A stretch of 64,000 nt of DNA, from positions 2,758 through 66,757 of the forward strand of contig CADBLE010000005.1 of assembly GCA_902795435.1 (NCBI GenBank). Reading direction: 5' to 3'. The stretch comes from an uncultured Pseudomonadota bacterium (GTDB taxonomy: Bacteria; Pseudomonadota; Alphaproteobacteria; Rs-D84). Below are positions 8,552 through 24,739 of this stretch, in pieces; positions within the stretch are counted from its first letter, which is position 1; each line of letters begins with the position of its first letter. Both the position numbers and the translations under genes were made by a program. Under the pieces are notes generated by a model, which saw only the letters and a list, made by a program, of their open reading frames with translations, had not been told where the DNA came from and ran no database searches.

Positions 8552-11182
8552 TTAATTTAATTTTCCATGACAATGTTTGTATTTCAAACCCGAACCACAT
8601 GGACACAATGCGTTACGACTGATATTCATATTCGCCATATGATTTTCAGAACCGCTTTGATTCAAACTAGAATCGTGTTCTGCCTGTTGTTGTGCAGTTG
8701 CATCAACATCTTCCTGGGTCAATTCCATACGGCAAATATATGCAACAGATATAGATTTGAAATTCATAATTGTGTTCTTGAATAAATCAAGTGCTTCATT
8801 TTTATATTCATACAACGGATTCTTTTGGGCATATCCACGCAAACCGATAGAACCCTGTAAATAATCCATCTGTTGTAAATGGCGTTTCCAAACACTGTCC
8901 AATGCGCCCAACATCATTTGACGTTGTGCCATTTGCATCAATTCAGGACCGTATTTTTCACATTGGTTTTGATAACGACGCAATGCCAATTTCAACAATG
9001 TTTCATACGCCACGCGTTCAGACACAGATTCATCTGTTTTCCATTTATCTAAATCTGTAATGTCTAATGAGAATATACGCATCATATCGTTATGAATTGC
9101 TTCTAAATTCCAATCCATTGGGTGTGCTTTTTCAGGAATATTGTTTTCACAAATCATTTCAACAACATCACCAATCAATTCTTCCACAAATGGATTCAAG
9201 TTTTCAGAACTCATCAATTCATCACGTTGTTTATAAATAACCATTCTTTGATCATTCATAACATTATCGTATTTCAGCAATTCTTTACGTGCTTCAAAAT
9301 ATCTTGCTTCTACGCGTTTTTGTGCTTTTTCAAGTGCCTTTGTTATCCAAGGGTGGGTAATTGCTTCACCTGGTTTTAATCCAAGGTTAGTCAACATGTT
9401 TTCCAATCTGGACGCACCAAATATACGCATCAAATCGTCGTCCAAAGCCAAGAAAAACTTAGAATCACCAGGGTCACCCTGACGACCAGAACGACCACGT
9501 AACTGGTTATCAATACGACGAGATTCATGTCTTTCTGTACCGATAACATATAAACCACCCGCATCCAATACCAACTGTTTATTCTTTTCAATTCTGTCTA
9601 TAATTTCTTTCTTTTTGTCTTCGAAATCAGGTGCAGTTTCATCAAGTTCTGCAATCAAATCGTCTGCATTACCACCCAATTTAATATCGGTTCCACGACC
9701 AGCCATATTTGTAGCAATTGTAACTGCACCTGGGGCACCGGCCTGGGATACAATTTTTGCTTCGCTTTCGTGGTGTTTTGCATTTAACACCGCAGGGTTG
9801 ATTCCTAATTTTTCACGAACGATTTTTGCCAATTCTTCTGATTTTTCAATAGACACTGTTCCAACCAACACAGGTTGTTGGCGTTCCATACATTCTTGGA
9901 TTTGTTTAATAATTGCATCGTATTTTTCAGATTTATTACGATAAATTTCATCATGATGATCAATACGTGCAACCGGTTTATTTGTAGGAATTGAAACAAC
10001 GCGTAATTTATAGATTTCTTCAAATTCTGCTGCTTCTGTCATTGCTGTTCCAGTCATACCCGCCAATTTAGGATACATTCTGAACAAATTCTGGTAAGAA
10101 ATACTGGACACAGTTTGATTTTCAGGTTGAACTGTTACATGTTCTTTTGCTTCAATTGCCTGGTGTAATCCTTTACCAAAACGACGACCAGACATCACAC
10201 GACCCGTAAATTCATCAACAATTAAAACTTCGCCATCGCGAACAACATAATTTACATTTTTGATATACAAATGGTGTGCCAACAAAGATTGTTGGATATG
10301 CATAACCAAAACAGCATTTTCAGACGCATATAAATTATCACCAACCAAAACACCGGCTTCTTTCAATAAATTTGTAGCATGGTCAATACCGGCATCAGTC
10401 AATGTAACATGTCTGTCTTTTTCATCAATTTTATAATCTTCTGGAACCAATTGAGCAACCACAGCATCAACTTTGTTATATAATTCACTGGTATCTTCCG
10501 CAGGTCCAGAAATAATCAAAGGTGTTCTGGCTTCGTCAATTAAAATACTGTCCACTTCGTCAACGATAGCATAAAAGAAAGGACGTAAAACCTGTTGTTC
10601 TTTTGTAAATTTCATATTATCACGCAGATAATCAAAACCTAATTCTGAATTTGTAACATACGTAATATCGCAATTATATGCTGCGCGTCTGTCTTCATCA
10701 GACATATCGTGTTGAATAATACCCACAGTCATACCCAAAAATCTATAAACCTGGCCCATCCAACCCGCGTCACGAGATGCCAGATAATCATTTACTGTAA
10801 TTAAATGTGCACCTTTGCCTTGTAATGCCTTTAAATACAAAGCCAATGTAGCAACCAATGTTTTACCTTCACCAGTTTTCATTTCTGAAATCTGGCCATT
10901 ACCCAAAACCATACCACCAATCAATTGCACATCAAAATGACGCAACCCAATTGAACGTTTTGATGCTTCACGAACCGCAGCAAACACATCAGGCAAAATA
11001 TCTTTTTCTTTTTCGCCATTTGCTAATCTTTCACGGAAAACATTTGTTAAATTGTGAATTTCTTCATCCGTCATTGCGGCATATTTAGGTTCCAAACCAT
11101 TTATAATTGCCACTGTTTTATCATAAGATTTAACCAATCTGTCGTTTACAGAACCAAACAATTTTTTCAATAAATTAGCCAT
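8552..11182 (-). CDS. secA: preprotein translocase ATPase SecA
   Basis: 876 aa. MKTGEGKTLVATL Walker A, DEVDSILIDEARTPLIISG, TNMAGRGTDIKLGG, and a C-terminal zinc-binding tail CPCGSGLKYKHCHG. Confidence 0.98.
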   Translation of the reverse strand: MANLLKKLFGSVNDRLVKSYDKTVAIINGLEPKYAAMTDEEIHNLTNVFRERLANGEKEKDILPDVFAAVREASKRSIGLRHFDVQLIGGMVLGNGQISEMKTGEGKTLVATLALYLKALQGKGAHLITVNDYLASRDAGWMGQVYRFLGMTVGIIQHDMSDEDRRAAYNCDITYVTNSELGFDYLRDNMKFTKEQQVLRPFFYAIVDEVDSILIDEARTPLIISGPAEDTSELYNKVDAVVAQLVPEDYKIDEKDRHVTLTDAGIDHATNLLKEAGVLVGDNLYASENAVLVMHIQQSLLAHHLYIKNVNYVVRDGEVLIVDEFTGRVMSGRRFGKGLHQAIEAKEHVTVQPENQTVSSISYQNLFRMYPKLAGMTGTAMTEAAEFEEIYKLRVVSIPTNKPVARIDHHDEIYRNKSEKYDAIIKQIQECMERQQPVLVGTVSIEKSEELAKIVREKLGINPAVLNAKHHESEAKIVSQAGAPGAVTIATNMAGRGTDIKLGGNADDLIAELDETAPDFEDKKKEIIDRIEKNKQLVLDAGGLYVIGTERHESRRIDNQLRGRSGRQGDPGDSKFFLALDDDLMRIFGASRLENMLTNLGLKPGEAITHPWITKALEKAQKRVEARYFEARKELLKYDNVMNDQRMVIYKQRDELMSSENLNPFVEELIGDVVEMICENNIPEKAHPMDWNLEAIHNDMMRIFSLDITDLDKWKTDESVSERVAYETLLKLALRRYQNQCEKYGPELMQMAQRQMMLGALDSVWKRHLQQMDYLQGSIGLRGYAQKNPLYEYKNEALDLFKNTIMNFKSISVAYICRMELTQEDVDATAQQQAEHDSSLNQSGSENHMANMNISRNALCPCGSGLKYKHCHGKLN

Positions 11183-11245
11183 TTTATTTCCTTCTTTTTT
11201 TACAATGCGATTTTGACCATTTTGGCATTGCCATATTTTTATTGT

Positions 11246-11274
11246 TTTATAGCAATTTTAGACCCTTTGGTCAA
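11246..11274 (-). promoter_or_regulatory. putative sigma70-type promoter for secA
   Basis: On the minus strand: TTGACC (11274-11269), a 17-nt spacer, then TATAAA (11251-11246), about 60 nt upstream of the secA start. Confidence 0.4.
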
Positions 11275-11346
11275 GCCACTTTATCCATATAATGCAGTTT
11301 TTTTATAAAACAAGTTTATATGTGAAAAAATCCCAGATTTTCGCGT

Positions 11347-14300
11347 TTATTCTGCGCTAGCATCATATACATTGTATGTATTATTGTTATACAAAACATG
11401 CATTTTTTTACTAGATTCTGAATTTATCGTCAAATTCTGTTGACCCATATTCACATAATATGTCTTGCCACCAATTTCCACAGCCAAAGCAGGGTGGGTC
11501 AATTGTTCCTCTGACAAACACATTTTATCTGATTCATCGTTTCCAATACGTAAATATTTTTCTGTTTCGCATACTGATTGGATTGGGTTGTTATTATAAC
11601 CTTCTGGAACACAAACCTTTGCATTATCAGATAAAATATTATCATAAATTGCTTTTCTGACCACAGATTGTTTCACGGTTACACCCGAAATATAACTGCC
11701 ACAATAACCCGGACATCTTCTTTGGCAACCTTCTAGTCCGCCAGTTGCGATATCTGCAACATAAACCCATCTTGACAACGCAGGCGCACCCATTCTGCAC
11801 CAACAATATTGTCCTGTTCCAGTCAATTCATCTAAAATATCAGAACCAGAAGTAGCATTACCATTTACAATATTTCTGCTTGCGTCTGCCGAACAAAAAG
11901 CATCACCCTCAATAACAATCCCCGCCATTTCACGATTTTCTTGAACATTATCAAAAGTGGCACGCCAACGCATTGCATCTCGCATTTCTTCATAGGTATC
12001 TGGATGTACAGTTTGGTATGGTTCATAATCATCTGCATCTATTTTGTAATTGTTTATCCATGGAATATCTATTTCAATATACCCATTTTTACAAACACAT
12101 TCTTCACCGTTCCAATTTTCGTTTTCGGAACACAATGGAACCCAATGTGCATATAATACAATATCTTGGGAATTGTCTTCTGAAATATAAGTAACCTTTT
12201 CACCACCATTTGCACTGTCATACCATCCAATAAAATTATAACCTTCTTTTATTGGTTCACATAAAATTTCTTTACCCATGCCAATATTTACAGCTTCATT
12301 TTCACAACCAGAACCACCGTTTGTATAATCGTAGGTTATATTATAAGCATTATATAAACATTCAGATTCAGAATTTGCACCATCATATAATGTCGTTGAA
12401 CCATCTGGACATTTTGTACAAGAAACCTTTGGATTTAAATCAGATTCAAATCCTGTATTATATTTGTAATATCCAATTGGACATTTTGTAATCAAACTGG
12501 TTCCTTCAAACATTTCAAACATAGACATATTTGTATCGTCATAATTTACATTATTTATTGTTCCAAATAAATCAGTTGGTATAAATCCGTATGTTGTATT
12601 TGTATTATAATCTTTGAAACCAACAATTTGTGAATCATTATAAAATGTTTGATAGAACATCATCCATTCTGGTTCACCAGACAATCTGCCAAACAGATTC
12701 TTTGGCACATAACCAGACAAATTTGTACAACCATAGAAAGTTCCATAATACATCCAACCTTGTGCATCACCATAGATATCACCAAACAATCCATCTGGAA
12801 TTTCACCAGTTAAATTTTCACAACCATCAAATGTTCCAGAATACATATTTATTGCAGGATTCCCGCTAATATTTCCAAACAATCCAGATGGTATATTTCC
12901 ATATAATTTCTTGCACCCATTAAATGTATTGGAATACATAGCGATTTTTGGACTGCCATAAATACCCGCAAATAAATTTGCTGGAATTTCACTTTCAATA
13001 TTTTGACAGTTATAGAAAGTATTACTGAACATTGCTTCACGTGTTTCACCACTGATATCAGCAAACAAGTTTTCTGTAATTTCACCCGTTATTCCTGTGC
13101 AACCCGCAAATGTTCTGTAAAACATATAATCCACAGGCGCCCCATGAACACCTTCAAATATATTTTCAGGAATAGGTGTTGTAATTTTATCGCAATTATT
13201 AAATGTGTTCGCAAATCTTGGCTGGGTTGATAAAGAATCACCGTTACCAATTGTAGGAAATACCGCACCCAAAGAGCCACGAATTGCAATTATTCTATCG
13301 TATGTGTTTGTTTCGTTACTGTTTTTAACCATACCAAATGTAATTGCACCATAATAATCACTATCACCAATATAATATTCACTAACATTTTTACTGCCGA
13401 TAGAAATTGTATATGTTTCGCCAGACATATAATTTACATAATTATGTTCTATTCTGGTTGGTTCTGGGGTTGTAATTCGTATTTGTTCAATATTGCCATC
13501 GCCCCAATTTATGATATAGGTTCCAGCCGCAGAAATACGGAAAACAAATTGTGGTGTATATGGTTTAACATCTAATTCAAATGGTGATGGAACACATCCA
13601 TATTCGTCCATTGTACCAGACGCAGAAGTAGTTCCATTTGGACATAAAATCTTTGATTCGTCCGCATTTTCAATTGTCCAAACACCCTGTGGGCAATAAT
13701 AACCAATTGGACATTCACGACATTCTGTAACATCTTGACCGACATATAAATATTCACCCGCATAACATTCGTATGTTGTTACATGGCATGAAGATTCGCC
13801 CACAGAACCATATTCAGAATACAAACCGTTTGGACAGCGTCTGCAAGAAACACGACCGTCCCAGAATTCATCAAATTCAGTTTCAACCTGATAATAATAT
13901 TCTGGACAAGCGGTAACAATACCTGAATTTTCAAATATATTTAACATTCCGTCGCCCTGGTGATCATCATTATCCAAATTCGCAAACAAGTTTTCTGGAA
14001 CCCAACCAGACAAAGAATAAGTGTCTTTAAATGTTCTGCGGAATGATTTATTCTCCAAAGAACCACTGATATTAGCAAACAAATCTTGCGGTATTTGACC
14101 ACTTAAATTTTCACATCCACTGAAAGTAGCAGCAAATATACGTTCTTTTGGTTCACCAGAAATATTAGCAAACAAATTGTGCGGTATTTCCCCTGTTAAA
14201 CTTTTACAATTAAAGAAAGTTCCTGGGAACATGTGTGGAACGGTTGTTCCGCGGATATTTGCAAATAAATTTTCAGGTATTGAATATGTTGGAACACCAT

Positions 14301-16458
14301 TTTCAGAACCTAAATTCTTACACCCAGAAAAAGTTCCATCAAACATGTACGATGCTGGTTGCCCTGAAATATTACCAAAGAAATGTTCTGGGATAGGGCC
14401 AGTAATATTTTCACATCCCATAAATGTAGAATAGAACATATGTTCCACAGGTTGCCCACGTAATTCAGCAAATAAATCTTCATCAAGAGAACCTTTCAAA
14501 TTTGTACACCCGTTAAATGTTCTCCAAAACCTTGGTTGTGTTGATAAAGAATCACCGCTATCAATTGTAGGGAATATCTTTGCCAATGACCCAGAAATGT
14601 ATTCAATTGCGTTATAAGTATTTGTTTGACCAGACCAATTCGCAAAAGAAATTGCAGCCGTTTCTACACTGGTGCTGTACCCATCTGCCAAACCACCAAT
14701 TCTGATGGTTCTGGATTTAGTATCTGAATATGTATGATAGATGGGCAAAGATGATTTATCTGTTTTTATGTATTCAGTAACATTACCATCACCCCAATCA
14801 ACATAAAATCTTCCAGATGCAGAAATACGGAATTCAAAATAATTTATTGAATTTGTGCTTATATTAAATTTTGCATCTATACATTCATTATCGTATACAA
14901 ATTGGTTTGTTGCACATATCACAGGTGTTATTGTTCCACCACCACCATTACCACCAACGGCATCACAAGAATCATTAAATACTTTTTTTCTAAATTCTTG
15001 ATCATTAGCCACCATTTCTGCACACAAAGCAGGGCAATTCTTACGACAATATTCATTCTTTGCAGTCCAATTTCCAGAATATCCAGACACGATATTACCA
15101 TAAACTACCCATCTCTTTTTATCCAAAGAACAAGAACACCCACCATAAGTTCCAGTCAAAACACCAGTTTTTATATCACCACGTGTTTTCCATGCGTTTG
15201 CCGCACAAACCGCCCAACCATTTACAGTTACACCATTAAAATCAACACCCCAACCCTGGTCAGATGTATAATAATCAAGTTCTGCCATATATTGGTCATA
15301 AATTGCGGTTCCTTCGCCTGCGTTGCCAGCAGATTGCGCAGATTTAAGATTAAACGAACTGCTACTGCCTGTTAGCAACTGATATTCTTCACCATTATAT
15401 GAATAATACACATCTGTGCTTATTTCTTGGACAGAAGGTAATTCTGATGTTGGATAATAAGAAGAAGCATTTTCAACAACACCATCTTCGCAACTCAAAC
15501 TTGGTACCGATATATTATGTTCACATTCTTGGTTTATGCCATTCCAAGTATAATCATCACCACGTGCATTACATTCAGATTCATAATCATATCTGCATGT
15601 CTGAGATTCAGTATCCCAATAATAATACCCGCCACGATTATCACATTCTGTTCTGTGGTTTTTACATTCACCATTTTCCCAATAATACAATTCACCATTA
15701 TTTACACATTCAGATTCATAATCATATTTACATGTCTGGGATTCAGTGTCCCAATAATAATACCCACCATTATCTTCGCATTCTGATTCATAATTATATT
15801 TACACGCCTGAGTTTCAGTGTCCCAATAATAATATCCACCACGATTTTCACATTCTGCTTCGTAATCAAATTTGCATTCATTGGCATTTTCGTCCCAATA
15901 ATATCCTTCACTGCATGTTGTCGTTGTATTCGGCACACAAATTTCACCATTATTTAAAATATTTGTTCCGTAAAAACTGCGAATTGTTGTCGAATATGTC
16001 TTGTTTGCACATCTTTTTGAACATTCGTCAAACCAAACATTTGAACCTTCTGGGATTGTGCTTGATGGGGCAACCGCACCACCAGAATAAGTCCAATTTG
16101 TTTCAAATGGCGCAACAATACGACACCAGCAATTTTTACCGGTATATGTCCCCGCCGGCACACTGGCATCTATTGAACCCGTACCTTTGTCCCAACCCAA
16201 AGATTCCCCATATATAGTTCCAATATTTGTTGCTTCTGCGGTAAATGTTGAACCAGAATATGAATAAGTCGGGTTTTTAACATTAAAATCATATACATGT
16301 GATGTTTTTGTGTAACCACTATCACAAACACATTCTGAACCATTGTATGTTGAATTAGTAGGGCAATTTACATCTGCCGCACGAACATTTTCCATATTTC
16401 CAACAACGATAAATAATGTCGCTGTTAAAAATCTAAAAAACATACGTTTCAACAACAT
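11347..16458 (-). CDS. giant mosaic surface protein 1 (1703 aa): G..CWC cysteine modules, YYWD tandem repeats, two BspA/DUF285-like cassettes, Cys-rich modules, conserved C-terminal domain
   Basis: Uninterrupted 5.1 kb ORF in AT-rich DNA with signal peptide MFFRFLTATLFIVVGNMENVRA. Module map in nt: CWC 15931-16368; YYWD repeats 15523-15915; CSC variant 14959-15276; BspA-like cassettes 13924-14841 and 12493-13551; Cys-rich 13591-13911 and 12355-12483; one Listeria-Bacteroides-type repeat 12142-12348; CWC 11608-12132; C-terminal domain 11350-11574. It starts only 7 nt after the stop of the upstream giant ORF. Confidence 0.9.
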   Translation of the reverse strand: MLLKRMFFRFLTATLFIVVGNMENVRAADVNCPTNSTYNGSECVCDSGYTKTSHVYDFNVKNPTYSYSGSTFTAEATNIGTIYGESLGWDKGTGSIDASVPAGTYTGKNCWCRIVAPFETNWTYSGGAVAPSSTIPEGSNVWFDECSKRCANKTYSTTIRSFYGTNILNNGEICVPNTTTTCSEGYYWDENANECKFDYEAECENRGGYYYWDTETQACKYNYESECEDNGGYYYWDTESQTCKYDYESECVNNGELYYWENGECKNHRTECDNRGGYYYWDTESQTCRYDYESECNARGDDYTWNGINQECEHNISVPSLSCEDGVVENASSYYPTSELPSVQEISTDVYYSYNGEEYQLLTGSSSSFNLKSAQSAGNAGEGTAIYDQYMAELDYYTSDQGWGVDFNGVTVNGWAVCAANAWKTRGDIKTGVLTGTYGGCSCSLDKKRWVVYGNIVSGYSGNWTAKNEYCRKNCPALCAEMVANDQEFRKKVFNDSCDAVGGNGGGGTITPVICATNQFVYDNECIDAKFNISTNSINYFEFRISASGRFYVDWGDGNVTEYIKTDKSSLPIYHTYSDTKSRTIRIGGLADGYSTSVETAAISFANWSGQTNTYNAIEYISGSLAKIFPTIDSGDSLSTQPRFWRTFNGCTNLKGSLDEDLFAELRGQPVEHMFYSTFMGCENITGPIPEHFFGNISGQPASYMFDGTFSGCKNLGSENGVPTYSIPENLFANIRGTTVPHMFPGTFFNCKSLTGEIPHNLFANISGEPKERIFAATFSGCENLSGQIPQDLFANISGSLENKSFRRTFKDTYSLSGWVPENLFANLDNDDHQGDGMLNIFENSGIVTACPEYYYQVETEFDEFWDGRVSCRRCPNGLYSEYGSVGESSCHVTTYECYAGEYLYVGQDVTECRECPIGYYCPQGVWTIENADESKILCPNGTTSASGTMDEYGCVPSPFELDVKPYTPQFVFRISAAGTYIINWGDGNIEQIRITTPEPTRIEHNYVNYMSGETYTISIGSKNVSEYYIGDSDYYGAITFGMVKNSNETNTYDRIIAIRGSLGAVFPTIGNGDSLSTQPRFANTFNNCDKITTPIPENIFEGVHGAPVDYMFYRTFAGCTGITGEITENLFADISGETREAMFSNTFYNCQNIESEIPANLFAGIYGSPKIAMYSNTFNGCKKLYGNIPSGLFGNISGNPAINMYSGTFDGCENLTGEIPDGLFGDIYGDAQGWMYYGTFYGCTNLSGYVPKNLFGRLSGEPEWMMFYQTFYNDSQIVGFKDYNTNTTYGFIPTDLFGTINNVNYDDTNMSMFEMFEGTSLITKCPIGYYKYNTGFESDLNPKVSCTKCPDGSTTLYDGANSESECLYNAYNITYDYTNGGSGCENEAVNIGMGKEILCEPIKEGYNFIGWYDSANGGEKVTYISEDNSQDIVLYAHWVPLCSENENWNGEECVCKNGYIEIDIPWINNYKIDADDYEPYQTVHPDTYEEMRDAMRWRATFDNVQENREMAGIVIEGDAFCSADASRNIVNGNATSGSDILDELTGTGQYCWCRMGAPALSRWVYVADIATGGLEGCQRRCPGYCGSYISGVTVKQSVVRKAIYDNILSDNAKVCVPEGYNNNPIQSVCETEKYLRIGNDESDKMCLSEEQLTHPALAVEIGGKTYYVNMGQQNLTINSESSKKMHVLYNNNTYNVYDASAE
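15523..15915 (-). repeat. in-frame tandem repeat, about 6 units of roughly 63-72 bp (21-24 aa)
   Basis: Protein units are C[ED]NRGGYYYWDTE[ST]Q[AT]CKY[ND]YESE. On the plus strand the motif cccaataataata recurs at about 15615, 15677, 15750, 15822 and 15894. Confidence 0.9.
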
Positions 16459-16465
16459 TTCCTAC

Positions 16466-19400
16466 TTACTCCATACTCGCGTCATATACGTTATATATTC
16501 TTCCCATATATTCAACACGCATTTTCTTGGTTGTTTCCGCATTTATTGTTAAATTTCTTTGTCCCATATTTGCATAATATGTTCTGCCATTTACCTGTAT
16601 TGCCAAAGCAGGGTGCGTCTGTTGTTCTTCATACAAACATAATTTATCTGATTCATTTTCGCCAATTCTCAAATATTTGCCAGATGGACATACAACATGA
16701 CATTCTGAAATTGCACTTGCGCCGTCATATTCCGTTGTTGTGCCATGAGGACATTGTGTCTTGGATTCATCTGCGGTTTCAACCGTCCAGACACCTTCTG
16801 GACAATAATATCCAATTGGACATGTTCTGCATTCAGCAACATTTTCATCAACATACAAATATTCACCAGCATCACATTCAAATTGTTCTTCTACACAAGA
16901 ATTTTGACCAACAGAACCAGCGTCTGACAAAGTTCCAACAGGGCACTTTACACAATCTGAAATATTTTCATCATAGTAATAATTTTCATTACATTGTGTT
17001 GATTCATCTAATTCCCAAACAGCATATAAATATTTATCACCAATTGAACCTTGTTCTATTGTATATGACAATGTTGGGTTTGAACAATTTTCGGTTTCGC
17101 ACCAACCCATAAATATGTAATTTGTTTTTTCTGGGTTGTTCAATGTAAATGTCGCGGTTTCAACATTATAAGATGTTGGGTTTTCCGCATAACCACCGTA
17201 TAATTCATATGTAATTGTGTAATCTATAGGCATACAGATTATACCTGTCTGGAAATCATACATTTTTTGTCTGAAACTTGTCTTGTCGCGCAAATACGAA
17301 GCACAGTTGCTTGCACAATGATTCTTGCAAGACGCATCATCATCGCGATTATAACGATAACCCCACTTTGAAATACGGCTTTCGATATTTCCGCCTGTTG
17401 GGGTGAAATAGTTGATTTGACACCAACAATATTGACCAGATGTTTCAACCCCCATATAACTTGTATCTGCGGTTTCGCTATCTGGTGTGTTATTGCAAGA
17501 TGCTATACCTTTGATTACACCATAATCAAAATATGTTTCCCATTCGCCATTATTTAATGTGTTTCCTTCACAACTATCACTTGCACTGCCATAACAATGT
17601 TGCCCATCATTGCTTCTTGAAATATATGAATTTCCTTTCTTGCTGATATCAACATTAAACGCAGAAGTGGTTGATGTTGTCTTGTAATATCCCACAGAAC
17701 ATCCTTCATATACACATTGTTGTGTATTTGCATCCCATCTGTAATCTTCGCCACGTGACAAACATTCTGATTCATAATCATATAAACATTCATGTGTTGC
17801 AGAATTCCAATAATATCCATCGGCACAAGAGCACGCTGATACATAACCACCATCAGAATATCCATGTTCTGGACATGCAACACACACGCCACCAGATGTC
17901 TTGTAATAATCTTCATGGCAAGGTTCTTCAATCCAACGTGCGTATAATGTTATATCTGTTGCTAATGATGTATCTATACCTGTTATTTCTGTATTATTTT
18001 CATCAAACCAACCAACAAATATTTTGCCGTCTTGTACTGGTTCAACCAATGAACTAATAAACGGTGTAGTTACGTTATATTCATAAATAACATTTGTGTC
18101 AGATTCAAATTCACCACCGTTTAATACATAGTTGATATGATATACTATCGGTGTATATGCACAAGTATTTCTGTTTCTATATATTCTGCCAGAAACCACA
18201 TAATAATCACGGCTTGAACAATTGTTATAACAATCATTTTCTGATACAGAACCAGCATCAGACCAAGGATATGAAGCAGGGCAATTTTCTATGCCAGAAT
18301 CTGTTGTTTCAGAATATTCATAATTACCACCAGAACAATATTTGTTTTCTTCACATTGTGCACAAACAAGTGTTCCAGCAGGCAAATAATATCCCGCTTC
18401 GCATCGTACAGTTTTTGGCATCCATTGTGCATAAACAGTTGTATCATGCGTTGTTCCTGTTTTGATATTTGTTATAGCATTCATATAATCTGGTGCCAAA
18501 GACCAAACAAGGAAATCATAATTTGGTTTTACAACACTTGTTGGTAACGCAAAACTATCCAATCTGGTATATGTGGTTCTTACATCACTGCCATCTAGCC
18601 ATGTACCACCATTTAATTCATAGTTCAGGTTATATTCTTCCATTTCTATGTTTGCAACACATGTCGTTGTGTCTTCTGTTACAGGCATATATTCATCGGT
18701 AGCATGTTCAACACCATTACATGTCCACCCGATTAATGTATCAAGTGTTATTCTGCATTCTGTTGCGGTTGGTGGCAAAACAGTAAATCCAACATAATTT
18801 GTTCTGGTTATTTGATGATTATTACCACAATCATATACAACACTTCCTTGTGGTGTTGCGATATTCCATCTTGCATACAATGTTACATCACCAGTCATAC
18901 CACGTGCAAAACCATATACAACATTTGATAAATCAGCAGATGTTGACCATCCATCAAATGCATATTGATGTCTGGTGTCACCGTGATGGTTATATGTTAT
19001 ATTTGATGGATATATAACATCATCTTGCTTTGTATATGTATTTGGTGTCAGACCAGTAATTTCATATTCTGTGCCATCTTCTGCAACATCTTTATAGGTA
19101 ATATGATATGTTTCCAAAACTTCTGGTTCTGGTTCTTTCAATTTTACATTACATGTTATTGTTCCATCTTTAACAGTGACATTTTCATCCAGCGCATATT
19201 CTTGTTCATCACATATCCAACCAATTAATGTTTCTGTGTCTATACGACATTCTGTCGCAGTTGCAGGTGACACGGTAAATCCAACATAATTTGTTCTGGT
19301 TATTTGACGCCTGTTACCACAATCATATACAACGTTTCCTTGTGGTGTTGCGATATTCCATCTTGCATACAATGTTATATCACCAGTCATACCAGGTGCA

Positions 19401-22400
19401 AAACCATATACCACATTTGATAAATCAGCAGATGTTGACCAACCATTAAACGCATATTGATGTATTGTGTTATCATTATACGGATATGCCACATCTGTTG
19501 GATAAACAACTGTATCTTCGGCAGTATATGTATTTGGCAACAAACTGTCTGGGATTACAGATTCCGTACCATCTTCTGTGATGTATTTATATGTAATACT
19601 ATATTCTTCGTAATTCCATTGTGGATTACATACGATTTGGTTTTCCGCAACTACCACACCTTCTGTTGCAGAATATACAGTTCCATCACAATTCCATCCT
19701 TCAAATGTTCTGTATGATGTTTCTGAAATACCGCATTCTTCCAGTGTAGCAGGGACAACAGCAAATCCAACATAATTTGTTCTGGTTATTTGACGTTTCT
19801 TACTGCAATTATACAAGACAGAACCTTGCGGTGTTGCAATATTCCATCTTGCATACAATGTTATATCACCAGTCATACCAGGTGCGAATCCATACACCAC
19901 ATTTGATAAATCAGCAGATGTTGACCAACCATTAAACGCATATTGATATGTTGTATTTTCATCATACGGATATGTCACATCCGTTGGATAAACGATATTA
20001 TCTTGCACAGTGTATTCTCTTGGGTACAGAGTATCCAATACGCCTTCTGTACCATTTTCTGTGAAATATTTATATGTAATGTGATATGTAACCGTATCAA
20101 AGACAGCATAAAATACCTTATTGCCAGTGTTTTGTACCGGATTAAATACATATTCCACCACAGGTTCTGCACAATTTGCGCTGCCTTCGCACCAACCTTT
20201 GAATGTATATCCCTGTAACACAGGATTATTCAGTGTAAATGTTGGGGTTGTGATATTATATCTTGATGGATTTGCCTTTGGTAATCTTGCACCACCCAAT
20301 TCATATCTAATGTTATAATCTTGTAAATTCCAAACTGCATATAAATCAACCGTTGCATTGTCTTCATCCGTCAAATTCTTGACAATAATATCATTATTGG
20401 CAGATGGATAATACATCACACTGTTATTATTGGCATCTGTTGACCAACCAACAAAACTATACCCATTTTTAACGATTTCATCATGGTTTGTAATATCACA
20501 ATTTTCGTTATAAACACAAGATATGGTTGCTTTTTCACCTGTTCCTGTATTTGCATTAAATCTTACATTATAATTATGAACATTCCAAACAGCATCACAC
20601 ACAACATCTTCATCTGGGACAACAATATAATCAACCAATACCTGTGGTGTATTAGAAACATTGCCAGCGCATCTCCATCCCTGGAATGTATAACCAGGAT
20701 TTGGACATTCAGAACTATCAAGCAACGCTTCGTTTTCACCGTATGATACATCTTTTGTAACGTGTTTATCCGCAGAATTATTACAATTATATGTAATTGT
20801 TCTTGTGTTTGTTTCCCAAACACCAGTCATTGTTACAACATTGTTATTAGGCACCAATCCATTGGTATTCACAACAATATTTGAACCTGTATAAATATAT
20901 TCTGTACCTTTGTTGTCAACAAATCCTTTGAATGTGTATCCCGGTCTTGATTGTGGAACATTACACAATGTGACGCTGGTATCTGTTGGCAAAGTATATG
21001 CCTTGGATGAATCAGGACATTCTTCAATATTTTCTATATCAACATATTCTATTGTTGCAGGATATCTACAAACACTGATTGTTTCTTCTGGGGTATAAGA
21101 TTGATTTGTAATATATCCTGGCTTAGTTGGACAATACGCAAAACAATCGTTTTCTCTGCTTCTTGGTTCATTAGAACCAGCCGAGAACACACCCAACAAA
21201 ACAGCACAAGAATTATCACCTTGGTTTTCATCTGGATTGAAATTCCAAGTACCTTCTTGGCAATAGAATCCAGATTTACATTTATTGCAAGTTGTTGAAT
21301 TTGCAGGCAAATAATAACCGTCATCACAATGATAACTGCCTAATTTCCAAATAGCATACAATTTTACGACACCTGGTTCTGTCAGTAAATTTTTAACCAA
21401 GATTCTATTGTCTTCGTTTGGAACAAAAACATTTTCTTCATCATACGCATCTAATGACCAACCAACAAAATCATATCCTAATTTGGTAATTTCATTGTTG
21501 TTTGTGACGTCACAATTCGTGCCATATTCACATATTACATTTGGTTTAGAACCTGTTCCTGTATTTGAATAAAATACTACTGTATATTTATTTGCATTCC
21601 ATACAGGTTCACAATCAACATCAAAATCATTTGCCCAATAATTAGTGGATGTTAAATTAAATTCTGTGTTATCTGCACGTGAATGACATTGCCATGAATC
21701 AAATTCATATCCTGTATTATTCCCACAAACATTTTGTCTTACTGTATAAGCACCAGCATACGAAACCGTGTCTGTAACAATATTATTTGAATCACACAAA
21801 TAACGTATTGTATATTCTTTATTTCCCCAATTCGCCCAGAACGTTAAGTTCCCAGTAGAACCCTTTGTTATCACTGTATATTCTTCACCGGTCAAATTAC
21901 TATTATTATACCAACCAGCAAATTCAAAACCTGTCCTTATTGGTTCTGGCAAAACAATATCTGATTCTATTTCCGCATTGTAAGTACGTGGGACATATGT
22001 ATCAGCAGTGAAAGATCCATTGTTCAAATTATATGTAATTGTATAAGGTTCAACATACCATTTTGCGTATAATTGTTTATTTCCAGTTGAACCTTTCGCA
22101 ATTTTTGTTATTTGGTCGCCTTCAAATTCTGGGTTATCAAACCATCCCAAGAATCTATAACCAGTTTTACTTGGATTATACAACACAATTGTTTCTGTCT
22201 TCATATTATATGTTGATGGATTTCTTTCGTCGTTAGTTCCACCATTCAAATCATATTCTATTTCGTATGTTGTTAATTCCCAATTTGCATAATATGTTGT
22301 TGTAGCAGCAGGTTCTACATTTGGTATGTATTCAATATAAGGTTGTTCATAACAAGTTGTTCTTGATCTGTCTGTGCACCAACCAATGAAACTATATCCT

Positions 22401-24250
22401 GTCTTTTCATTTGGCTCTGCAGTAATCGCAATACCATTGTTGTCACGTAATTGTGCGTATGTATATTGACTTGGTTCAAGTCCTGGTAAATCAATGGTAG
22501 AATTGTTATCATTTATATCTTTATAATTGATAGCATAAACTTTTTCTTGCCATTTTGCGTTACATATCGCATCAGATTCTATTGTATAAACACCAGAAAT
22601 AAATGTATTTACCACACTTGATACATCAGTATCAGATACAGCATTACAATCCCATCCTGTCTGGGTTTGACCGACCATATTACAGAATGGGGCAACCATT
22701 GTAAATGTTGAATCATAAACAACACCAGAAGTATTAGTTATTCCATTTTCACCGCAAGAATATGTGATTACATATCTGTTGGCTTCCCATTTTGCATAAA
22801 AAACTTTATTACCATAACTTCCTTGTTCAATTGTGTGTGTTTGATGCACATCAGAACAATATAAATTATTTTCGCACCAACCAATAAATGTATATCCACG
22901 TTTTGTTGGATTATTCAATGTAAATGTAGGTGTTTCTACATTATAAGATGTTGGATTTGTCGCGGAACCACCGTCCAGGTTATATGTTATTGTGTAACCG
23001 ACTGGCGCCCAAACCGCATATAAATCTTTATTACCAGTTGAACCTTGGGTAATTGTATATGTAAGTGTAGGGTTTGAACAATTTGCACTGTTTTCACACC
23101 AACCAGCAAATTCATAATTTGCTTTTGTTGGGTTTACCAATGTAAATGTAGGTGTTTCTACATTATAAGATGTTTGATTTGTCGCAGAACCACCATCTAA
23201 ATGATATATGATTGTATAATCTGTTGCTCTCCAAACTGCATATAAATCTCTGTCACCAGTTGAACCTTGGGTAATTGTATATGTAAGAGTAGGGTTTGAA
23301 CAATTTGCACTGTTTTCACACCAACCAGCAAATTCAAAATTTGATTTTGTTGGATTATTCAATGTAAATGTAGGTGTTTCTACATTATAAGATGTTTGGT
23401 TTGTCGCAGAACCACCATCTAAATGATATGTGATTGAATATGATTGTTCTGTCCAGAATGCTGTAAATTCCAAATTCCCAACAGAACCATTTTGCACAGT
23501 ATATGTTTGTACACGATTTGTGCAATTTGCATCATTCACACACCAACCATCAAAATCATATCCAATTTTAGTTGGATTATTTATTGTAAATGTTGCGGTT
23601 TCAACATTGTAAGATGTTGGATTTACCGCATTACCACCATTTAATTCATAAGAAATTGTATAAGGAATAATATTCCATCCCGCATACAAATCCTTATCCC
23701 CGATGGAACCAGAATCTATTCTTGTGACCAAAAATCCAGAATTCTGGGTTTGTGAGGCATTATCATTACTATACCAACCGACAAAATCGTAACCATTTCT
23801 GGTCGCTGGCAACAATTCAATATCAGGAGATTCAACAGTATAAGAGGAAGGATTAGAACTGTTGTTTGTCCCGTTATATAAATTGTAGTAGTTGATATCG
23901 TAGGAATGCACCACACAGTGTACATTTGCGGTATTTACCTCTGTCATGTTTTCATAACCGGTTTTACATTCAGCGGTATATGTGCAAGTGCCGGTTGTTT
24001 CATCAACCGTCAGATTACAAGAGGCCGTATTTACTGCCAAATCTGTACATTCTTGACACCATCTTGCAGAGAAAACAACAGTACTGTTTTCATCAGCATC
24101 CAAAGCGTCGTATGTACACATCAAAGATTCATTTGGAGCAACAAAGAAAGAGTCCGCAAAAACAGGATTCATGACAAAAGGCACCACCAACGCAAACAGC
24201 ATTGCTTTTATATGATATAAAAACACCGCGGAAATCCGCCTTTTTATCAA
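16466..24250 (-). CDS. giant mosaic surface protein 2 (2594 aa): about two dozen Listeria-Bacteroides-type repeats, Cys-rich modules, one G..CWC module, conserved C-terminal domain
   Basis: Uninterrupted 7.8 kb ORF. TTG start at 24250, preceded by AGGAAGG. Signal peptide IKAMLFALVVPFVMNPVFA. Repeats of about 70-80 aa have the pattern Y.I.Y.L.GG......Y......L..P...GY.F.GW.......LYA.W. Module map in nt: Cys-rich 21060-21330, 18150-18405, 17708-17920 and 16694-16996; CWC 17228-17707; C-terminal domain 16469-16693. Confidence 0.9.
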   Translation of the reverse strand: MIKRRISAVFLYHIKAMLFALVVPFVMNPVFADSFFVAPNESLMCTYDALDADENSTVVFSARWCQECTDLAVNTASCNLTVDETTGTCTYTAECKTGYENMTEVNTANVHCVVHSYDINYYNLYNGTNNSSNPSSYTVESPDIELLPATRNGYDFVGWYSNDNASQTQNSGFLVTRIDSGSIGDKDLYAGWNIIPYTISYELNGGNAVNPTSYNVETATFTINNPTKIGYDFDGWCVNDANCTNRVQTYTVQNGSVGNLEFTAFWTEQSYSITYHLDGGSATNQTSYNVETPTFTLNNPTKSNFEFAGWCENSANCSNPTLTYTITQGSTGDRDLYAVWRATDYTIIYHLDGGSATNQTSYNVETPTFTLVNPTKANYEFAGWCENSANCSNPTLTYTITQGSTGNKDLYAVWAPVGYTITYNLDGGSATNPTSYNVETPTFTLNNPTKRGYTFIGWCENNLYCSDVHQTHTIEQGSYGNKVFYAKWEANRYVITYSCGENGITNTSGVVYDSTFTMVAPFCNMVGQTQTGWDCNAVSDTDVSSVVNTFISGVYTIESDAICNAKWQEKVYAINYKDINDNNSTIDLPGLEPSQYTYAQLRDNNGIAITAEPNEKTGYSFIGWCTDRSRTTCYEQPYIEYIPNVEPAATTTYYANWELTTYEIEYDLNGGTNDERNPSTYNMKTETIVLYNPSKTGYRFLGWFDNPEFEGDQITKIAKGSTGNKQLYAKWYVEPYTITYNLNNGSFTADTYVPRTYNAEIESDIVLPEPIRTGFEFAGWYNNSNLTGEEYTVITKGSTGNLTFWANWGNKEYTIRYLCDSNNIVTDTVSYAGAYTVRQNVCGNNTGYEFDSWQCHSRADNTEFNLTSTNYWANDFDVDCEPVWNANKYTVVFYSNTGTGSKPNVICEYGTNCDVTNNNEITKLGYDFVGWSLDAYDEENVFVPNEDNRILVKNLLTEPGVVKLYAIWKLGSYHCDDGYYLPANSTTCNKCKSGFYCQEGTWNFNPDENQGDNSCAVLLGVFSAGSNEPRSRENDCFAYCPTKPGYITNQSYTPEETISVCRYPATIEYVDIENIEECPDSSKAYTLPTDTSVTLCNVPQSRPGYTFKGFVDNKGTEYIYTGSNIVVNTNGLVPNNNVVTMTGVWETNTRTITYNCNNSADKHVTKDVSYGENEALLDSSECPNPGYTFQGWRCAGNVSNTPQVLVDYIVVPDEDVVCDAVWNVHNYNVRFNANTGTGEKATISCVYNENCDITNHDEIVKNGYSFVGWSTDANNNSVMYYPSANNDIIVKNLTDEDNATVDLYAVWNLQDYNIRYELGGARLPKANPSRYNITTPTFTLNNPVLQGYTFKGWCEGSANCAEPVVEYVFNPVQNTGNKVFYAVFDTVTYHITYKYFTENGTEGVLDTLYPREYTVQDNIVYPTDVTYPYDENTTYQYAFNGWSTSADLSNVVYGFAPGMTGDITLYARWNIATPQGSVLYNCSKKRQITRTNYVGFAVVPATLEECGISETSYRTFEGWNCDGTVYSATEGVVVAENQIVCNPQWNYEEYSITYKYITEDGTESVIPDSLLPNTYTAEDTVVYPTDVAYPYNDNTIHQYAFNGWSTSADLSNVVYGFAPGMTGDITLYARWNIATPQGNVVYDCGNRRQITRTNYVGFTVSPATATECRIDTETLIGWICDEQEYALDENVTVKDGTITCNVKLKEPEPEVLETYHITYKDVAEDGTEYEITGLTPNTYTKQDDVIYPSNITYNHHGDTRHQYAFDGWSTSADLSNVVYGFARGMTGDVTLYARWNIATPQGSVVYDCGNNHQITRTNYVGFTVLPPTATECRITLDTLIGWTCNGVEHATDEYMPVTEDTTTCVANIEMEEYNLNYELNGGTWLDGSDVRTTYTRLDSFALPTSVVKPNYDFLVWSLAPDYMNAITNIKTGTTHDTTVYAQWMPKTVRCEAGYYLPAGTLVCAQCEENKYCSGGNYEYSETTDSGIENCPASYPWSDAGSVSENDCYNNCSSRDYYVVSGRIYRNRNTCAYTPIVYHINYVLNGGEFESDTNVIYEYNVTTPFISSLVEPVQDGKIFVGWFDENNTEITGIDTSLATDITLYARWIEEPCHEDYYKTSGGVCVACPEHGYSDGGYVSACSCADGYYWNSATHECLYDYESECLSRGEDYRWDANTQQCVYEGCSVGYYKTTSTTSAFNVDISKKGNSYISRSNDGQHCYGSASDSCEGNTLNNGEWETYFDYGVIKGIASCNNTPDSETADTSYMGVETSGQYCWCQINYFTPTGGNIESRISKWGYRYNRDDDASCKNHCASNCASYLRDKTSFRQKMYDFQTGIICMPIDYTITYELYGGYAENPTSYNVETATFTLNNPEKTNYIFMGWCETENCSNPTLSYTIEQGSIGDKYLYAVWELDESTQCNENYYYDENISDCVKCPVGTLSDAGSVGQNSCVEEQFECDAGEYLYVDENVAECRTCPIGYYCPEGVWTVETADESKTQCPHGTTTEYDGASAISECHVVCPSGKYLRIGENESDKLCLYEEQQTHPALAIQVNGRTYYANMGQRNLTINAETTKKMRVEYMGRIYNVYDASME
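18640..20110 (-). repeat. three direct in-frame copies of a roughly 490-bp (about 163-aa) unit inside giant gene 2
   Basis: The motif aaatccaacataatttgttctggttatttga recurs at about 18783, 19276 and 19762. Each protein unit is Y[HS]ITYK....DGTE ... QYAF[ND]GWSTSADLSNVVYGFA.GMTGD[IV]TLYARWNIATPQG.V.Y.C......ITRTNYVGF. Confidence 0.85.
22995..23440 (-). repeat. two near-identical 222-bp (74-aa) adjacent Listeria-Bacteroides-type repeat units
   Basis: aaccttgggtaattgtatatgtaag occurs at 23041 and 23263 (period 222 bp). The protein units Y.I.YHLDGGSATNQTSYNVETPTFTL.NPTK.N.EFAGWCENSANCSNPTLTYTITQGSTG..DLYAVW are almost identical. Confidence 0.85.
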
Positions 24251-24383: not shown

Positions 24384-24523
24384 TATAAACAAATATGTTT
24401 TTGTCAATTATTTTGACTATTTTTATTTATAAAAAAATTTACAGTAAAAAAATGTTGTTTTTGTGTTTTTATTTTGCATTTTTTTGTGTTATTATTATAG
24501 CGAAGAGAGAAGGGAGGTATTTT

Positions 24524-24739
24524 ATGAAATCTAATATTACAGAATTAAAACCATCTGATATTACAAGTGAAGTATTTCTTATCTCTAAAACACAAATAGA
24601 TTTTATTTCTGCTAATTTTGGCGACGCCATGGCAGAAGCATTAAATCTGAAATCTTTATCATATAAATTCCGTAAAATCGCAGCAGACACTTTGGTCAAA
24701 GCACTGAATTCTGCCAGCACAATGGGGGGACGTCAATAG
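24524..24739 (+). CDS. small hypothetical protein (71 aa), divergent ORF between giant genes 3 and 2
   Basis: ATG at 24524 is preceded by GAAGGGAGG 6 nt upstream, the strongest Shine-Dalgarno I saw in this window. No TM segment. The ORF-track start at 24395 is an upstream extension through very AT-rich, promoter-like DNA. Confidence 0.55.
   Translation: MKSNITELKPSDITSEVFLISKTQIDFISANFGDAMAEALNLKSLSYKFRKIAADTLVKALNSASTMGGRQ

Follow-up and report, generated by a model that had tools for sequence, protein, structure and literature searches.

What does a 75-residue domain do at the end of two giant proteins of a gut alphaproteobacterium, and why does a third giant protein, encoded beside them, lack it? 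The genes concerned lie within the window, i.e. the whole 64-kb stretch of DNA analysed here, which belongs to a genome of 955 kb. Mosaic exported proteins are encoded by 41% of this window, and by a large share of the whole genome too. The order Rs-D84, to which Candidatus Enterousia belongs, occurs widely in the rumen, the hindgut, and the guts of chickens, humans, and termites. Genomes of this order are smaller than 1 Mb and lack respiration and most transporters, which suggests that these bacteria depend on partners (PMC12306168). The features discussed below are as follows:

8552..11182, minus strand: secA, 164 nt downstream of P0001 and on the same strand
11347..16458, minus strand: gene P0001, 1703 aa
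11350..11574, minus strand: end domain (CTD) of P0001, 75 residues, two-Cys type (VCETEKYLRIG...YNVYDASAE), from translation, BLASTP, HMM, and AlphaFold
16466..24250, minus strand: gene P0002, 2594 aa
16469..16693, minus strand: CTD of P0002, 75 residues, from translation, BLASTP, and HMM
24776..37837, minus strand: gene P0003, 4353 aa, of the same mosaic family and without a CTD
24779..24922, minus strand: the ending that P0003 has instead, part of a Flg_new repeat (profile positions 4–38 of 65)

The CTDs are exactly the final 75 codons of P0001 and P0002, and the peptides that the earlier note gave for this shared end are correct. A reading of 11350–11574 and 16469–16693 on the plus strand is ruled out, as the plus frames are full of stops and the genes therefore lie on the minus strand. 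The two copies align without gaps at 50 of 75 positions (67% identity; BLASTP, E 5e-27), and the CTD and a 174-column match of 40% identity across Cys-rich modules are the best-scoring BLASTP segments between the two proteins. A profile HMM of the domain is matched over model positions 1–75 at the very end of the P0001 open reading frame. The similarity noticed at the DNA level also holds, with a mean column identity of 83% over 258 columns including the flanks, as does the difference between the upstream neighbours: an unannotated Cys-rich domain ("CWC") precedes the CTD in P0001, and an ephrin-receptor-like Cys-rich module precedes it in P0002.

Both carriers are mosaics. P0001 contains a Sec signal peptide, Cys-rich repeats, 2 LRR-like modules (neither with a Pfam match), 1 Flg_new repeat, the CWC domain, and the CTD, while in P0002 the signal peptide and the CTD are accompanied by 16 Flg_new repeats, ephrin-receptor-like modules, and a CWC domain. 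The stop of P0002 lies just 7 nt from the start of P0001, and this short gap makes it probable that the two genes form one operon. By Pfam score, P0001 (48.7 bits, 1 repeat), P0002 (451 bits, 16 repeats), and P0003 (558 bits, 20 repeats) are all members of the Flg_new or Listeria-Bacteroides repeat proteins (PF09479; gathering cut-off 27 bits), a membership that concerns the carrier proteins and not the CTD; the family definition is silent on this domain, which lies outside every Flg_new match.

AlphaFold predicts that the CTD is compact and all-beta, with six strands (pLDDT 95.9, pTM 0.84), and a Foldseek search with this confident model finds no match in the PDB; a PDB profile search was likewise empty. 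Profile searches of the whole P0001 and P0002 proteins against Pfam and NCBIfam (E ≤ 0.01) return no match over the CTD, and among 84 isolated CTD members no T9SS or other sorting-domain model of these databases is matched, with none for T9SS at E ≤ 1. The one recurring match, to PF17834 (GHD), is local and sub-threshold: it covers a single hairpin, appears in 19 of the 84 members, and was judged to be a motif resemblance. We take the CTD to be an independently folding, extracytoplasmic all-beta domain of a new sequence family. The only fold neighbours come from BFVD and are weak, i.e. 4 uncharacterised gut-phage proteins (TM 0.55–0.60, E 0.045–0.22). A phage origin of the CTD was rejected: tblastn against 50,697 phage records is without a match, as is the search of IMG/VR contigs, and the gene of the N-terminal type described below sits among housekeeping genes.

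These searches agree with the earlier view that the CTD is unlike known C-terminal signals (LPXTG, the T9SS CTD, RTX/T1SS, and the autotransporter barrel). Specifically, the short motif, hydrophobic helix, and basic tail of sortase and exosortase signals (LPXTG, PEP-CTERM, GlyGly-CTERM, etc.) are absent from the CTD. CTERM models match neither P0001 nor P0002 over their whole length at E ≤ 0.01, and Firmicu_CTERM is the only CTERM-type match among the 84 members (2 members, E 0.012, below the cut-off). A T1SS/RTX signal does not fit proteins with Sec signal peptides, a folded beta C-terminus, and no RTX/HemolysinCabind match, nor does an autotransporter (T5SS) barrel fit a domain of 75 residues and six strands that has a polar end and no match to PF03797. 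No Pfam match to dockerin (PF00404) is found either, and the CTD model is all-beta. The last 30 residues are polar (..KKMHVLYNNNTYNVYDASAE), the domain ends in Glu or another polar residue, and the tails of P0001 and P0002 show no hydrophobic or charged stretch and no terminal aromatic beta-signal. Conserved across all CTD subfamilies are Asp73 (99%), Tyr42 (96%), Cys4 (96%), Tyr69 (93%), Pro30 (89%), and His11 (81%), with residues numbered after a 77-residue model.

The domain recurs well beyond the two giants, with 5 copies in this genome, all C-terminal, and 632 protein clusters in public metagenomes. The CTD occurs only in one family of gut Alphaproteobacteria, Rs-D84, with Candidatus Enterousia and sister genera: of 301 genomes of the order, 231 carry the CTD, every one of them from this family and together from 9 of 29 genera, and none of the 306 other alphaproteobacterial genera sampled has it. 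A genome can hold up to 16 paralogues with an identical signature. Carriers are between 180 aa and more than 5000 aa long and have very unlike architectures; they include small, nonfibrous proteins of 180–250 aa, and those inspected with a complete N-terminus have Sec signal peptides. Short matches that seemed to consist of a signal peptide and the CTD alone turned out to be fragments or to have miscalled starts.

Is the domain always C-terminal, as a sorting, anchoring, or secretion-recognition role proposed for it would suggest? Among the top 149 representatives, 131 (88%) carry it within 10 residues of the C-terminus and 148 carry it once; in the remaining 18 it lies further than 10 residues from the end. 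The CTD is N-terminal in at least 137 clusters, where it stands directly after the signal peptide and is followed by a ConA/LamG-fold (lectin-like) head, and other proteins have one further domain beyond it. The terminal pattern thus stands in part: the CTD is usually terminal, single, conserved, and carried by varied exported proteins, but the N-terminal clusters contradict a strictly terminal position. Among the single candidates tested, no transporter or anchoring gene shares the CTD distribution, and the sole secretin is universal in the order.

The end of P0003 (...PTRPGYVFAGWDVTSE) was described earlier as an abrupt stop in a Listeria-Bacteroides-type repeat. The repeat is there, and the CTD HMM finds no copy in P0003, as had been claimed, but the protein is not truncated: the same partial Flg_new ending recurs in about 20 other exported, CTD-less paralogues in this genome, and it is also seen on small partner proteins encoded in other genomes. 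A degraded CTD behind P0003 was rejected, as the HMM is negative over the 525-nt spacer; a plus-strand open reading frame of 114 aa, without a Pfam match, is all that this spacer contains. In the closest relatives, an orthologue of the P0003 end is not assembled or absent. The CTD and the C-terminal partial Flg_new repeat interchange on otherwise similar small proteins, and on giants as well.

Modules are also exchanged upstream of secA. In related species, a CTD-ending gene lies upstream of secA at 28 of 55 loci, and among 20 such syntenic genes the CTD is kept while the module before it swaps (Flg_new, CWC, or LRR with ephrin-like). The CTDs of these 20 genes have a mean pairwise identity of 39%, vs 25% for the 125 aa before them, and in 96% of pairs the CTD is the more conserved part. 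A functional link between the CTD and the Sec machinery was considered and set aside, as the adjacency to secA is most simply conserved gene order. In the spacer between P0001 and secA a scan found no terminator-like site; by eye, the spacer also contains a TTGACC/TATAAA-like pair that the scan does not list. A small CTD gene in this genome adjoins secG-rnc-lepB, a neighbourhood unique to this genome.

Small CTD genes also have recurrent neighbours. At 14 of 38 loci, a small CTD-ending gene lies directly downstream of an exported LamG-fold head gene, with a gap of −71 to +6 nt (mostly −11 to +6), and at 4 more of the 38 the upstream gene encodes another beta-rich head. The CTD and LamG also occur in one chain, in either order. 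A Rosetta-stone inference from these fusions is weakened by the two orders and by the abundance of LamG in genomes without the CTD (one has 16 LamG copies and no CTD), and because the family is so mosaic, fusions prove little.

How, then, might the CTD act? We tentatively favour, at somewhat less than even confidence, the reading that it is a portable module through which the proteins of a mosaic surface repertoire are docked or anchored, and that it acts in its folded state. The CTD is one interchangeable end module in a combinatorial set of Sec-exported, disulfide-rich mosaic proteins, whose other parts are Listeria-Bacteroides repeats, ephrin-receptor-like and LRR-like modules, the CWC Cys domain, and LamG-fold heads. 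A putative site formed by His11, Lys26, Thr28, Pro30, Tyr41-Tyr42, Asn53, Tyr69, His/Tyr72, and Asp73 may fasten the carrier to a conserved component, which would be the envelope of the cell itself or a further subunit of a surface fibre, and the variable remainder of the carrier would then be displayed. Because of its compact six-strand fold, the CTD would be recognisable wherever it stands in the chain. We infer that the domain binds something, and that its target is the bacterium's own surface apparatus rather than a host ligand. In the N-terminal clusters, where a LamG-fold head follows the CTD, the lectin-like head would be the obvious ligand binder and the small CTD the obvious attachment part. 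Among the single candidates tested, none qualified as a binding partner or receptor or shared the distribution of the CTD.

All of these docking arguments fit a conserved lectin-like tip equally. In this reading, which we consider somewhat unlikely, the CTD would itself be the binder, a small domain of lectin-like or receptor-binding type at the far tip of an adhesin fibre, and would recognise a conserved structure on the partner or host (a protist, another bacterium, or a mucus glycan). The conservation of Tyr-Tyr, His, Asn, and Asp across all subfamilies is consistent with a binding site of this kind, the terminal position recalls phage-fibre tips, and the sole, weak fold neighbours are the uncharacterised gut-phage proteins. 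Moreover, the carriers are adhesin-like repeat proteins of a genome-reduced bacterium that is probably partner-dependent (PMC12306168). However, conservation is higher in the CTD than elsewhere in the protein, and it is the variable parts that look like specificity determinants. The domain is also often joined to a bona fide lectin-fold head, so that a second binder would be needed only if the protein were bivalent, and it has no sequence relatives in phage records or viral contigs.

The docking reading can be extended to the ending of P0003. The CTD and the terminal partial Flg_new repeat may be two "address" modules of an undescribed surface-assembly system peculiar to the Rs-D84 family, in which giant stalks and small LamG or CWC heads, exported separately, would be plugged together or onto the envelope, with the CTD as a docking tag of new fold. 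We regard this larger scheme as unlikely; if it were true, a bacterium with a genome of less than 1 Mb could produce a broad set of contact fibres with few genes, and reshuffle it.

It is distinctly unlikely, in our view, that the CTD is a folding or oligomerisation nucleus, i.e. a "foldon"-type element that joins or caps fibre chains as in phage fibritin, the C-terminal domains of phage fibres, or the trimeric mosaic fibres of Bdellovibrio. Its terminal position at either end of elongated repeat proteins and the weak fold likeness to uncharacterised phage proteins would suit such an element, but the CTD also occurs on the 180–250 aa nonfibrous proteins, which have no obvious need for an assembly nucleus. 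The many different modules that precede it argue against a cap for one repeat type, and the monomer model is compact and very confident alone.

An obligate C-terminal secretion-recognition signal is unlikely because of the internal and N-terminal copies, the lack of a co-distributed transporter, and the CTD-less mosaic paralogues, P0003 among them. That the CTD is a sorting or secretion signal in the manner of the T9SS CTD, by which an outer-membrane translocon or attachment machinery carries a periplasmic, disulfide-bonded protein to the surface, is highly improbable: its length of about 75 aa, beta-rich fold, single copy, 88% C-terminal position, and lineage restriction follow T9SS CTD logic, the Sec-dependent, Cys-rich carriers must cross the outer membrane after folding, and a single secretin is conserved in the genome, but at least 137 clusters have the CTD behind the signal peptide and others have a further domain after it, P0003 and about 20 mosaic paralogues do without it, 0 of 84 members match T9SS or other sorting-domain models of NCBIfam or Pfam, the tail lacks a hydrophobic or charged stretch and a terminal aromatic beta-signal, and the secretin, rejected as a dedicated translocon, occurs in 28 of the 29 genera of the order vs 9 of 29 for the CTD.

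On many of the mosaic exported proteins, the CTD is all that stays constant. Once identified, its target would tell the fixed end of these proteins from the displayed one, would turn CTD fusions into a handle for labelling or capturing either these uncultured cells or their partner, and would enlarge the small set of bacterial surface docking or sorting modules by a new fold. As the family is absent from Pfam, NCBIfam, and the PDB, its description also brings an annotation gain for hundreds of "hypothetical" proteins.

Three known systems invite comparison. The T9SS CTD (Por_Secre_tail, PF18962/TIGR04183) is likewise a lineage-restricted, single, beta-rich, C-terminal domain of about 70–100 residues, carried by many Sec-exported surface proteins that are otherwise unrelated, giant adhesins among them. 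By contrast, the Enterousia CTD has no sequence, profile, or structural match to it, is alphaproteobacterial, and can also stand N-terminally or before another domain; no dedicated machinery for it was found, and a search for SprA_N gave no match in this genome, nor in any control genome. To our knowledge, T9SS is known only from the Bacteroidota group.

Dockerins of cellulosomes resemble the CTD in length (about 70 residues), in their mostly C-terminal and sometimes N-terminal or internal position, and in being single modules on many exported proteins of one organism. They dock onto a partner in the folded state, as is proposed here for the CTD, and occur in modular gene rows in gut and rumen organisms. 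They differ in having a Ca-binding, helical, duplicated EF-hand-like fold vs the predicted all-beta fold of the CTD, and no counterpart of cohesin was found for the latter.

SLH domains and the GW modules of Listeria InlB hold unrelated exported proteins on the surface of the producer from a terminal position (for SLH, at either end). These are Gram-positive or monoderm-type wall anchors with other folds, usually in tandem, whereas the CTD is single, has no sequence match to them, and belongs to a diderm bacterium with TolQR, a secretin, and TolC-like proteins. InlB nevertheless shares with P0001 and P0002 the combination of a B-repeat (Flg_new) and a C-terminal module, which in InlB is a noncovalent anchor.

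The 955-kb assembly (15 contigs, 35% G+C), in which the window is C5:2758-66757, encodes three giant exported mosaic proteins, P0001, P0002, and P0003, whose genes lie in the window as follows:

11347-16458, minus strand, gene of P0001 (1703 aa)
16466-24250, minus strand, gene of P0002 (2594 aa)
24776-37837, minus strand, gene of P0003 (4353 aa)

The P0002 stop and the P0001 start are just 7 nt apart. The intergenic DNA separating P0003 and P0002 is very rich in A+T and contains a 114-aa open reading frame on the opposite strand (24395-24739, plus) with no Pfam match. An earlier note on this DNA claimed that the last 75 residues of P0001 and P0002 align end to end, and we find that they do so without gaps, with 50 of 75 positions identical (BLASTP, E = 5e-27). 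The coordinates it assigned, 11350-11574 and 16469-16693, are indeed the final 75 codons of both genes and the peptides were quoted correctly; the nucleotide sequences are alignable, and the modules upstream are unlike in the 2 proteins, both as it had stated. This terminal domain (CTD) has no match in Pfam or NCBIfam. Across the 3 giants, Pfam recognizes only Listeria-Bacteroides repeats (Flg_new, PF09479) and ephrin-receptor-like Cys modules; the only NCBIfam matches are to the model of the Listeria-Bacteroides repeat and, below threshold, to internalin models that hit this repeat in P0001.

Two further module types are visible in the mosaic proteins:

11575-12130, minus strand, Cys-rich CWC domain of P0001 (P0002 has it too, and P0003 has several)
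12370-14900, minus strand, LRR-like modules of P0001 (residues about 520-870 and 960-1320)

The CWC domain is about 130-180 residues long, its signature is G..CWC(R/K/Q)...W......C...C...C(A/G), and Pfam gives no match to it at E <= 0.1. It precedes the CTD in P0001 and follows it in several homologues; in small proteins it stands by itself after a partial Flg_new repeat. The 2 LRR-like modules, preceded by a conserved 'F.FRISA.G.FY(V/I).WGDG' unit, are built of about 25-residue repeats (..F.GC.NL.G.IP..LF..I.G.P....F...) that look like BspA-type leucine-rich repeats, and the first of them, scanned alone, has no Pfam match at E <= 0.1.

An HMM built from the P0001 and P0002 copies, run on six-frame ORFs, reveals 5 CTDs in the genome, each at the extreme end of its ORF. 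The carriers are P0001, P0002, one protein of 1031 aa, another truncated by the start of its contig, and a small one of 208 aa counted from the start codon (open frame 220 aa). Besides the 2 giants, 3 further carriers with an assembled N-terminus have Sec signal peptides. Searched against 1.84 billion representative proteins from public metagenomes, the profile hits 632 clusters with E <= 1e-3 and 243 with E <= 1e-10. The CTD is present in 231 of 301 genomes of the order Rs-D84, with up to 16 copies per genome, and in 9 of its 29 genera, all belonging to one family; it is absent from all 306 other alphaproteobacterial genera sampled, and no relatives occur in the phage records or viral contigs searched.

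The SecA of this organism is 87-96% identical to that of MAGs from rumen, hindgut, and horse faeces named Candidatus Enterousia or 'Alphaproteobacteria bacterium', and 77-78% identical to that of termite-gut MAGs. Enterousia are uncultured, with genomes under 1 Mb and neither TCA cycle nor respiration (PMC12306168); the literature on them makes no mention of CTD carrier proteins. TolQ/TolR-like genes, one secretin, and three TolC-like proteins establish that the envelope is diderm. The CTD is part of the surface-protein repertoire of a group of uncultured gut symbionts.

AlphaFold2 (84-sequence alignment; pLDDT 95.9, pTM 0.84) models the CTD as a compact domain of 6 strands forming 3 hairpins. 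Conserved positions are Cys4, Leu10, His11, Ile12, Gly13, Leu22, Lys26, Thr28, Pro30, Tyr41, Tyr42, Met45, Asn53, Tyr69, His/Tyr72, Asp73 (99%), and Ser/Thr75, with variable loops at 47-51 and 54-58. One subtype, which includes P0001 and P0002, has a second Cys at position 21; the other has Tyr there and is preceded by a 'G-x-G-A-D-E-x-x-D-C-G' motif. Foldseek finds no match to the model among solved structures (best E 2.4, TM <= 0.32), nor does a profile search of PDB sequences. Among predicted viral structures, 4 uncharacterized gut-phage proteins resemble the model (TM 0.44-0.60, E 0.045-0.22), which may serve as a lead only. Such proteins from human-gut phage contigs (BFVD A0A8S5NPH6, A0A8S5UTN0, and A0A8S5SD73; TM about 0.6, 17-22% identity) are the only structures found with a CTD-like fold. 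The CTD represents a genuine domain family, not described before and limited to a single lineage, with no sequence or structural match in the libraries searched (Pfam, NCBIfam, and the PDB).

Hits to the domain are usually, not always, C-terminal, the point that the earlier note wanted checked. Specifically, the CTD lies within 10 residues of the C-terminus in 131 of 149 top representatives (88%) and is single copy in 148; in the other 18 it lies farther from the end. These exceptions are real architectures. In several, the CTD directly follows the signal peptide and precedes a 200-220-residue domain; several others carry one further CWC domain C-terminal to it, one an LRR-like module after it, and another 2 copies in tandem. 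The N-terminal arrangement forms a populous family, in which at least 137 clusters (90% identity) can be aligned from end to end; the gene of one member stands among housekeeping genes. Very short matches are fragments, and no protein made solely of signal peptide and CTD was found.

The secA gene lies 164 nt downstream of P0001, and 28 of 55 Enterousia-like secA loci have a CTD-ending gene on the same strand at most 1 kb upstream, with a gap of typically 155-170 nt. What precedes the CTD varies across 20 of these syntenic genes: it is mostly Flg_new, CWC in P0001 and one other, and LRR plus an ephrin-like module in the closest relative (SecA 96% identical). Averaged over pairs, identity is 39% in the CTD vs 25% in the 125 residues before it, and in 96% of pairs the CTD is the better conserved part. 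Since the preceding modules differ while the CTD persists, modules are shuffled around a retained end piece. In the secA region of the window (8552-11346, minus strand), no terminator-like site was found in the spacer between P0001 and secA; a TTGACC/TATAAA-like promoter pair is visible there by eye and was not listed by a consensus scan.

P0003 was said to end abruptly in a Listeria-Bacteroides-type repeat. The repeat is indeed partial, the last 48 residues (24779-24922, minus strand) matching only Flg_new profile positions 4-38 of 65, but the ending is not damaged, as it recurs in about 20 exported CTD-less paralogues of this genome, mostly of about 410 aa (..GKTF[RK]GWRFS..). Small proteins in other genomes end likewise. 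Sites of the recurrent terminal form (profile positions about 2-42 of 65, '..P.K.G..F.GW..') and of a two-gene unit on other contigs of the assembly are:

C8:8810-9304, C8:55027-56376, and C11:10123-11442, partial Flg_new repeat (about 17 more in the genome)
C8:8810-10050, minus strand, recurrent two-gene unit with tight, often overlapping spacing

In the C8 unit, an exported LamG-fold gene (C8:9304-10050) is followed, with a one-base overlap, by a small-protein gene with the partial-repeat ending, whose counterpart in other genomes ends in a CTD instead; thus, on small proteins and giants alike, the end module can be either the CTD or the partial repeat. The partial repeat may be a second docking tag. 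In other genomes it also occurs N-terminally, right after the signal peptide, in LamG-fold and CWC-domain proteins. Gene 1 of such units encodes signal peptide, partial Flg_new, and LamG head ('ESTGTQ[WY]IDTG ... G.P.CM[YF]D.V...FYYN.GTG.F'), and gene 2 a small Cys-rich protein with either ending.

The domain after the N-terminal CTD is modeled as a ConA/LamG/pentraxin-type jelly roll (AlphaFold, pLDDT mostly 85-96 in that part), with Foldseek matches to LamG domains, pentraxins, CBM66, and a Bacteroides putative carbohydrate-binding protein (E 1e-5 to 1e-3). Of 38 small CTD-ending genes surveyed in other genomes, 14 lie directly 3' of a gene whose product combines signal peptide, partial Flg_new, and LamG-like head, at distances of -71 to +6 nt (mostly -11 to +6), 4 more follow a similar gene with another beta-rich head, and 8 follow a CTD-less gene with a CWC domain and/or partial-repeat ending. 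Seen from the LamG side, the link is looser: LamG and CTD share a chain, in either order, in 8 of 30 loci, and one genome with 16 LamG copies lacks the CTD.

A co-occurring transporter had also been proposed as a check. The single secretin is found in 295 of 301 genomes and does not track the CTD, because it is present in 28 of the order's 29 genera. A SprA_N search gave no hit in this genome, nor in any of the control genomes. The small CTD gene of this genome adjoins secG, rnc, and lepB (C7:20950-23549), a neighborhood not conserved in 16 other genomes and therefore probably due to chance.

We tentatively favor a docking or anchoring domain that ties its carrier to something constant; the CTD would be recognized in its folded state, and this folded domain would link the carrier to a constant element. 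This reading fits because the CTD is single copy, usually terminal at either end, autonomously folding, and better conserved than the rest of the protein, because all subfamilies share the same conserved polar and aromatic signature, and because it combines with lectin-fold heads and interchanges with a second end module. No binding partner was found, and the docking mechanism is inferred. The CTD could instead be a conserved ligand-binding tip, which we consider unlikely, or an oligomerization or folding nucleus, which seems less probable still. A sorting signal is very improbable. Of the earlier idea of sorting, anchoring, or secretion, an anchoring-type module is the part we retain, while the CTD is unlikely to be a linear or strictly C-terminal signal for secretion, given that it is also N-terminal and internal, that paralogues lack it, and that no transporter is co-distributed. 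Although membership tests place the CTD outside the T9SS CTD, dockerins, and SLH or GW anchors, these are its closest analogies.
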